Shown: in pieces, positions 25,509-26,390 of the stretch
Layout of the letters: every line of letters starts with the position of its first letter
Numbering within the stretch: the stretch's first letter is position 1
DNA from: a virus
Reading direction: 5' to 3' (one strand)
Length of the DNA stretch: 26,445 nt
UHGV virus genome: UHGV-0139945
Notes under the pieces: generated by a model
What the model was told of the DNA's origin: nothing
The model's input: the letters and a program-made list of their open reading frames with translations, nothing else
Database searches by the model: none
Made by a program: the position numbers and the translations under genes

Positions 25509-26390
25509 ATGCGTTTTAACACCCCACTTCGTTATCCTGGCGGCAAAGGCAAGCTTTCAAATTTCATGCTTCGGATTATTGAAGATAATAAGCTTTCGCC
25601 TATACATTATGCAGAGCCATACGCTGGGGGGGCTGGTTTAGCGCTGAAGCTTTTACACTTAAATGTAGCTGAAAAAATCATTCTTAATGATATTAATATC
25701 TCTGTTTATGCTTTTTGGCACAGTGTATTAAATAATGCAGATCATCTGTGTGCTTTAATTGAAGAAACTGAAGTCACAATGGATGAGTGGTTCAAACAGA
25801 AAGAAATAATTAATAATCCAAAAGACCATGATATGCTAACAATTGGTTTTTCTACCTTCTTTCTTAATAGAACAAATCGTTCTGGAATATTAAAAGGCGG
25901 TGTAATTGGTGGTAAACACCAAGAAGGACAATGGAAACTTGATGCTCGCTATAATAAGAGTGATTTAATTTCTCGGATCCAGAAAATATCAAAAAACCGT
26001 GAAAAAATAGATTTGTATAACATGGATGCAATTGATTTCATAAAAAAGATAGTTGTTCAACTGCCTATGAAATCATTAACATATTTAGATCCGCCATATT
26101 ACATAAAAGGTAAGGGATTATATATCAATCATTATGAACATAGTGACCATGTTAATGTTGCAAAAGTAGTGCAGAATGATATTAAAACACCATGGATTGT
26201 TTCTTACGATAACACTCCTGAGATCCAAAGTATGTATAAGGCATCATCATTAGTGTATGGAATAAACTACAGTGCTCAAGATCGATATAAGGGCTCAGAA
26301 GTGATGTTCTTCAGTAAACGATTGAAGGTCTTTAAAACCGATGATCCAACTAAGGTAAAAGCACCCACCATTAAAAATGCTATGAGCTAG
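25509..26390 (+). CDS. Dam-family (D12-class) DNA N6-adenine methyltransferase, 293 aa
   Basis: RYPGGK near the N-terminus, AdoMet motif EPYAGGAGL and catalytic DPPY (LDPPYYIKG), motif order as in E. coli Dam / M.DpnII-type enzymes; RBS AGAGG 7 nt upstream; low GC. Confidence 0.85.
   Translation: MRFNTPLRYPGGKGKLSNFMLRIIEDNKLSPIHYAEPYAGGAGLALKLLHLNVAEKIILNDINISVYAFWHSVLNNADHLCALIEETEVTMDEWFKQKEIINNPKDHDMLTIGFSTFFLNRTNRSGILKGGVIGGKHQEGQWKLDARYNKSDLISRIQKISKNREKIDLYNMDAIDFIKKIVVQLPMKSLTYLDPPYYIKGKGLYINHYEHSDHVNVAKVVQNDIKTPWIVSYDNTPEIQSMYKASSLVYGINYSAQDRYKGSEVMFFSKRLKVFKTDDPTKVKAPTIKNAMS

Follow-up and report, generated by a model that had tools for sequence, protein, structure and literature searches.

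PD-lambda-5 from Escherichia coli ECOR7 is a validated two-gene defence system, which consists of a ParB/DUF262-HEPN protein (A) and a methyltransferase (MTase; B), gives protection against 9 of the 10 phages tested and was called a compact 'RM+Abi' system by its authors (Vassallo et al., 2022; PMC9519451). Its cloning needed an mrr-deleted host (PMC9519451), which implies that the methylase of this system is active. Here we describe a related pair of genes in UHGV virus genome UHGV-0139945, a stretch of 26,445 nucleotides that is called the window below. The second gene of the pair encodes an MTase of the PD-lambda-5 B family and the first encodes an ATPase of the OLD type; the pair is a partner-swapped cassette of the PD-lambda-5 type, which resembles restriction-modification (R-M) systems and carries an OLD-like effector. 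What is new here is the partner of the MTase, the MTase family being already known. The parts of the pair are:

25509..26390, plus strand: MTase open reading frame (ORF), 293 amino acids, ATG start, D12 class (alpha), PD-lambda-5_B clade; proposed modification half
23696..25429, plus strand: OLD-type ABC ATPase with a C-terminal Toprim-like domain, 577 amino acids; proposed restriction/effector half
24683..25429, plus strand: C-terminal domain of the ATPase, Toprim-like, putative nuclease

The likeness to PD-lambda-5 concerns the layout as well as the MTase: there are two genes, the effector comes first and the MTase second, and the unit is borne by a prophage. However, the A protein of PD-lambda-5 (ParB/DUF262 plus HEPN/DUF4145, ~460-500 amino acids) is replaced here by the unrelated 577-residue ATPase. 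The PD-Lambda-5_A model is not among the 25 PADLOC matches listed for this ATPase (E-values to 2e-12); true PD-lambda-5 A proteins score 1e-110 to 1e-164 on that model. With B present and A missing, the window pair falls outside the PADLOC rule for PD-lambda-5, and it was missed by PADLOC-DB v2.0.0.

The translation of the MTase gene contains the motifs RYPGGK (residues 8-13), EPYAGGAGL (residues 36-44) and DPPY (residues 194-197) in this order, which an earlier note on this DNA, made from the letters alone, had correctly read from it. This is the order of the alpha class: the S-adenosylmethionine (AdoMet)-binding motifs are N-terminal, the catalytic (D/N)PPY comes after the recognition region, and the motifs are invariant in 21 homologues. 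The protein matches Pfam MethyltransfD12 (PF02086) over residues 9-248 (E=4e-17, 63.1 bits with a cut-off of 22) and the PADLOC model PD-Lambda-5_B (PDLC04018) with residues 1-283 on model positions 1-284 of 291 (E=5e-123); the PADLOC type II MTase model is matched too (E=9e-107). The term 'Dam-like', used in the same note, is right as to the D12 alpha-class fold and describes the fold class, not the specificity. Dam proper (NCBIfam TIGR00571, GATC-specific) was tried and rejected, the score of 49.9 bits being below the cut-off of 114.85, and no Dam structure is among the matches of a sequence search of the PDB. The sole solved relative that is detectable by sequence is M.CbeI (PDB 7M6B; E=7e-21 with the family profile, ~265 residues aligned), an alpha-class N4-cytosine methyltransferase of Caldicellulosiruptor bescii (PMC8616854). 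It shares DPPY with the window MTase, but it is a distant relative and the central recognition block is not conserved between the two. Because M.CbeI methylates N4-cytosine, the D12 class and the DPPY motif do not prove adenine specificity. In its exact form, the window protein falls into a cluster that counts 338 sequences of Klebsiella, Citrobacter and E. coli, and it is found in Klebsiella oxytoca and its relatives.

The linkage of the two genes was examined in both directions. A metagenome scan with the ATPase alignment returned 80 loci (43-93% identity), and the MTase adjoins the ATPase in 79 of them, in 75 directly downstream on the same strand; in the only locus without an MTase the contig stops 3 nt past the ATPase, hence all 79 assessable loci are linked. 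The forward scan, for which the MTase alignment and one genome per species were used, gave 80 loci of 48-96% identity from many phyla. An ATPase homologue (42-46% identical, full length) lies directly upstream in 12 of these, which belong to Proteobacteria, Bacteroidota and Geobacter relatives, and a tightly linked partner of some kind is present in ~70. The identity matrices of MTase and ATPase correlate with r=0.84, a value matched by none of 500 permutations. No third conserved gene (e.g. for a controller protein, a helicase or a reverse transcriptase) occurs in the 79 ATPase-anchored loci. The junction between ATPase and MTase is at most 20 nt long in 38 of 74 pairs, exactly 2 nt in 26, and ~80 nt in the enterobacterial clade; the pairs at most 20 nt apart, about half of all, are plainly operonic. 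Therefore, the linkage in both directions, the co-evolution, the lack of a third gene and the close junctions make the window MTase one half of a two-gene unit, not an orphan or a bystander. The orphan state that the earlier note had put first among its three readings does not hold as a general state, given the 79 linked loci; a rare orphanised copy does exist. Its third reading, by which the MTase protects the cell from the adjacent nuclease, fared better: comparative genomics supports a functional tie between the two proteins, and self-protection is inferred.

The orphanised copy (L012, 6875-8882) comes from Symbiopectobacterium. Its MTase is 96% identical to that of the window, there is no ATPase, and what precedes the MTase is a fragmentary ORF for a C5-cytosine methylase; it looks like a rare orphanised gene in a genome that may be decaying. 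Other apparently 'broken' genes of the pair are mostly alignment-edge artefacts. Those that are left, L095 and L012 versus L173, are too few to separate the models discussed below.

The partner of the MTase varies between lineages. Beside the 12 loci with the ATPase, PD-lambda-5_A is found directly upstream on the same strand in 56 of the 80 MTase-anchored loci (5 of these with a more distant ATPase nearby), HerA together with an unknown protein stands beside the MTase in 3, and the remainder either lack a partner or lie on a truncated contig. In the MTase tree there were at least five changes of partner, and for 139 of 142 MTases the nearest neighbour has the same partner type. A total of 82 alignment columns reach 80% conservation in the MTases partnered with the ATPase as well as in those partnered with PD-lambda-5_A; the residue is identical between the two groups in every one of them, and the recognition regions show no group-specific difference. 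The 'new kind of modification-dependent system' suggested in the earlier note was too strong a phrase, since the MTase lies within the B family of a validated system and the novelty is confined to the partner. The PD-lambda-5 methylase is a module common to several effector types. Since the recognition region is the same whatever the partner, the effectors may read methylation status via the MTase itself, without DNA-recognition domains of their own for this purpose. This leads to a tentative idea, which we hold to be possible but on balance doubtful: the MTase clade would be a portable self-marking hub for unrelated effectors, and the ATPase would represent a fifth, methylation-licensed class of OLD nucleases. 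If true, the self/non-self rule of this OLD branch would be epigenetic.

Several individual loci deserve mention in this connection. L014 (2497-6004), L069 and L085 combine an MTase of the same clade with a HerA/DUF87 ATPase of ~690 amino acids and a protein of ~465 amino acids that has no Pfam or PADLOC match. In L071, L079 and L086 the order is PD-lambda-5_A, MTase and then an OLD-type ATPase 24-37% identical to that of the window, and in L056 and L057 the arrangement is convergent; one MTase is thus flanked by two different effectors.

The upstream ATPase could also start at an alternative ATG at 23642, which would give 595 amino acids; the start at 23696 is favoured because the alignment with distant homologues begins at about residue 19-24. 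The protein scores 58.8 bits with Pfam AAA_15 (cut-off 32.1) and is above threshold with AAA_21 too, and its best PADLOC matches are PtuA, AriA, GajA and the retron I-B ATPase-Toprim. Its AlphaFold model has a predicted local distance difference test (pLDDT) score of 88; in Foldseek, GajA and Thermus OLD rank first among the full-length matches, and the fold of PtuA is matched as well. The Walker A and B motifs, the Q-loop, the H-loop, E375/D376 and D429xD431 (numbering of the 595-residue form) are invariant in all 79 sequences, the mean identity of which is 54%. The C-terminal domain consists of an alpha/beta core of four strands, in which a Glu follows strand 1 and DxD follows strand 3, and of a helical bundle behind this core. 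When searched alone, it was not recognised as Toprim by Pfam or Foldseek, being too divergent, and the ATPase has no match to DUF4435 even at E up to 10. The 'OLD-like nuclease' of the earlier note is therefore to be split: the assignment as an OLD-type ABC ATPase is solid, and a Toprim nuclease fold in the C-terminal domain is likely, though weakly supported.

In the window, the two genes are separated by a spacer of 79 nt, which contains three putative elements of expression control:

25436..25474, plus strand: hairpin and T8 tract, intrinsic-terminator-like; 14-bp hairpin at 25436-25472, T8 at 25467-25474
25454..25482, plus strand: promoter-like site for the MTase, TGGCCA-17-TATACT with a TG-extended -10 box, from a consensus scan
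25498..25502, plus strand: Shine-Dalgarno sequence AGAGG, 6 nt 5' of the MTase ATG, read from the sequence

The terminator that had been noticed between ATPase and MTase is indeed terminator-like: an 88-nt stretch with the hairpin and its T8 tract has a fold energy of -21.2 kcal/mol (z=-2.9). The consensus scanner gave this hairpin on the minus strand only, the loop on the plus strand being 9 nt; the terminator is possibly bidirectional, as there is an A-tract upstream of the hairpin. In the E. coli copy the hairpin is retained through a G-U change and an extra G-C pair, and it is also present in L094 and L113. The ribosome-binding site ascribed to the MTase is likewise there, with the same AGAGG in the E. 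coli copy. Between the window and that copy, identity amounts to 93% in the spacer and ~85% in the flanking genes. A TATAAT, TATACT or TACAAT box, often with TG, occurs in ~17 of 20 examined spaced lineages, and its distance to the start of the MTase gene is similar in these. This -10 box, kept in most spaced lineages, supports the independent expression that the earlier note held to be possible for the MTase; about half of all pairs, however, are operonic.

To summarize the observations, both genes are intact, their linkage is obligate and, like their co-evolution, extends across phyla, and the catalytic motifs are conserved. We propose, with a probability of roughly 0.6, a self-contained R-M-like defence cassette of two genes, in which modification falls to the MTase and the OLD-type ATPase is the other half. 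The MTase would mark a fixed short motif in the DNA of host and prophage, and in the window lineage it would be transcribed from its own promoter behind the terminator-like hairpin. The ATPase-nuclease, using ATP, would then act on incoming DNA without the mark, and marked self DNA would be spared. The MTase is presumed to be active here, the C-terminal domain of the ATPase to function as a nuclease, and methylation to restrain it. We favour this R-M-like model because of the obligate linkage, the co-evolution, the conserved catalytic residues in both proteins, the MTase promoter behind the hairpin and the behaviour of PD-lambda-5.

The chief alternative is a guard, or abortive infection, model. 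In this case the ATPase-Toprim protein would not be restrained by DNA methylation, but would monitor the MTase or the methylation reaction; it would be released when a phage inhibits methylation, for example by an S-adenosylmethionine-degrading enzyme or a DNA mimic, and would cause cell death or a halt of translation. Such a guard would be comparable to PARIS, which senses Ocr. One would argue that, among characterised proteins, those most closely related to the ATPase (PtuA, AriA, GajA and retron effectors) are triggered effectors and not methylation readers, and that PD-lambda-5 was itself termed 'RM+Abi' by Vassallo et al. The service of one MTase clade, with an unchanged recognition region, to unrelated effectors is also easier to understand if it is the MTase protein, rather than a motif in the DNA, that the effectors read, and L173 tolerates an intact ATPase alongside a broken MTase. 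However, the obligate linkage and an MTase-specific promoter after a terminator fit the classical modification-first arrangement. Additionally, the catalytic motifs of the MTase are all invariant, so that selection acts on enzymatic methylation and not on a mere scaffold. We regard the guard model as unlikely.

The broken MTase of L173 is connected with a further feature of the gene:

25626..25632, plus strand: G7 homopolymer within the codons for the AdoMet-binding motif (AGGAG)

L173 is a 98%-identical copy with G6 at this place (~4735-4745), which frameshifts the MTase into ORFs of 43 and 203 amino acids; its ATPase is intact. The G7 tract is restricted to the lineage of the window, and relatives read GGAGGGG or GGGGGT there. 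For the G6 state there are two explanations, an off switch that is prone to slippage or an error in the assembly. A cluster of 199 'truncated MTase' sequences was considered as evidence of phase variation and rejected, its members being contig-edge partials. Phase variation at the G7 tract is therefore a weak side-lead.

The next rival depends on the genomic setting of the pair, which is bounded by two further features:

22472..23638, plus strand: prophage tyrosine integrase (Pfam Arm-DNA-bind_2 E=5.5e-22, Phage_integrase E=5.3e-17); marks the int-att end
26391..26445, no strand assigned: non-coding tail of the prophage; the ssrA-derived attachment core ends ~70 nt past the window end

We extended the window by means of 10 contigs that encode the exact MTase protein. 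All 10 have the order integrase, ATPase, MTase, the MTase is the last prophage gene, and no genes besides these two lie between int and the attachment site. The same integrase gene is located 5' of the pair in E. coli, in Citrobacter phage phiNP and in the extended contigs. Rfam recognised a 3' fragment of transfer-messenger RNA (ssrA) that ends 125 nt after the MTase stop in L002 (E=9e-11), and contigs with differing downstream DNA are identical up to exactly the end of this fragment. Past it follow host genes (LysR, flavin reductase, RND efflux) or an unrelated island with a P4-type integrase. The GC content of the pair is 30-37%, that of the prophage 48-55%. The pair is an AT-rich moron, which a lambdoid prophage of Klebsiella carries between its int gene and the attachment site in ssrA. 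Of 5,426 complete E. coli genomes, 85 have the same layout at ~85% identity, among them JJ1886 and JJ1887 of sequence type 131 (ST131), and the layout recurs in Citrobacter phage phiNP.

Such a position, at the extreme end of mobile elements beside integrases, and a base composition foreign to the prophage would suit an addiction module. The main effect of the pair would then be post-segregational killing, by which the prophage or island is stabilised; the ATPase would be the toxin and the MTase its antidote, and the contribution to phage defence would be small. Many type II R-M systems act as addiction modules, which adds to the appeal of this explanation. We nevertheless hold it to be improbable as a full account: addiction is compatible with defence, the sister system PD-lambda-5 protects against most phages tested, and several loci are found beside type III R-M genes in a setting that resembles a defence island. 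In the distant loci L066, L068, L073, L149, L154 and L157 the pair accompanies type III-like restriction genes (a methylase of ~570 and a helicase-like protein of ~965 amino acids), and this setting is defence-island-like and not a prophage end.

Some side observations belong to the same surroundings. The 3' end of ssrA is the site of the prophage in L002 (10883-11007) and, downstream of the MTase, in L001, L003, L008, L009 and L010, and in several genomes a second element with a P4-type integrase sits in tandem at this site; its cargo is an NA37 and RelA_SpoT pair with a relaxase in some, and pentapeptide-repeat and DUF7380 proteins in another. In L010 (4228-4345), ~115 nt are inserted immediately 3' of the MTase stop codon; the insertion has terminal inverted repeats (GGGAGGGTGCGAATAAGT...) and a duplicated TAG/CTAG, and it looks like a miniature transposable element. 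The record of Citrobacter phage phiNP (L172, OR565852.1) has the ATPase annotated and leaves the intact MTase ORF at 5868-6749 unannotated; this phage has a second adenine methyltransferase ('mtase_2') upstream of its exonuclease. In the early prophage region of the window, 19656-20213 is an ORF for a YfdR-type 5'-deoxynucleotidase, which is annotated in the E. coli relative too.

An orphan MTase, which would shield phage DNA from host restriction or have an epigenetic role beside an unrelated ATPase, is very improbable. REBASE-based studies name no partner for the E. coli homologue and enter it simply as a putative type II MTase (PMC4659465), and an MTase with its own promoter-like site and ribosome-binding site, of which a close copy exists without the ATPase (L012), could be taken as self-sufficient. 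The ST131 methylome paper gives the homologue of JJ1886 by its REBASE name, which we matched by genome position, and that paper holds no methylation motif for it. However, these points are outweighed by the 79 linked loci, by the co-evolution of the two proteins, by the 2-nt or overlapping junctions in many lineages and by the presence of a linked partner in nearly all 80 MTase-anchored loci. The last reading of the earlier note, an M subunit whose R gene lies past the window end, could not be excluded from the window alone, which stops 55 nt after the MTase stop codon, but it is refuted by the contig extension for which that note had asked: this shows the ssrA fragment and then host genes or an unrelated island, and no R gene follows in the 10 contigs or in E. 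coli.

The R-M-like model bears on a wider question, namely how OLD-family nucleases discriminate self from non-self. An ATPase that is always accompanied by one MTase clade points to a testable answer, at least for this branch. The occurrence of the pair in E. coli, Klebsiella and the cultivable Citrobacter phage phiNP makes experiments straightforward. The ATPase partner also explains the prophage 'putative type II MTase' that methylome studies list as partnerless. The ATPase-MTase cassette is widespread, unnamed and probably R-M-like.

A description of this OLD-like ATPase and MTase pair was not found in the searchable literature, which included the OLD review and papers on BREX, Menshen, WonAB and nuclease-NTPase systems. 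The 2023 OLD review does not mention a methyltransferase partner, and nuclease-NTPase systems were defined as being without methyltransferases in a 2025 survey. Within the OLD family (P2 Old, Thermus OLD, GajA of Gabija, the retron-Eco8 effector, AriA/AriB of PARIS), the window ATPase shares the N-terminal AAA_15-type ABC ATPase, and its C-terminal domain has an invariant Glu and DxD in a topology that is probably that of Toprim. Yet the four recognised classes have no methyltransferase partner, and none of their genomic contexts (alone, with a UvrD-type helicase, with a retron, or split as AriA/AriB) fits the window ATPase, the constant partner of which is the MTase. P2 Old aligns with it only around Walker B, and the AriAB model of PARIS covers only residues 25-84, with no DUF4435-type effector present. 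AbiR with M.LlaKR2I of Lactococcus and MADS (methylation-associated defence system) are multi-gene defence systems whose effector is non-classical and depends on a methyltransferase or goes together with one. The latter includes an OLD-type AAA ATPase, MAD3, but the window ATPase scores 30.7 on the MAD3 model (cut-off 420) and is not a member. The type II R-M systems offer a further comparison: here too the effector and the MTase are encoded by separate adjacent genes and the MTase can be expressed alone, and the window pair is mobile and compositionally foreign. However, the putative restriction protein of the window is an ABC ATPase without a recognised restriction-endonuclease fold, and its predicted ATP dependence would set it apart from the ordinary type II enzymes.
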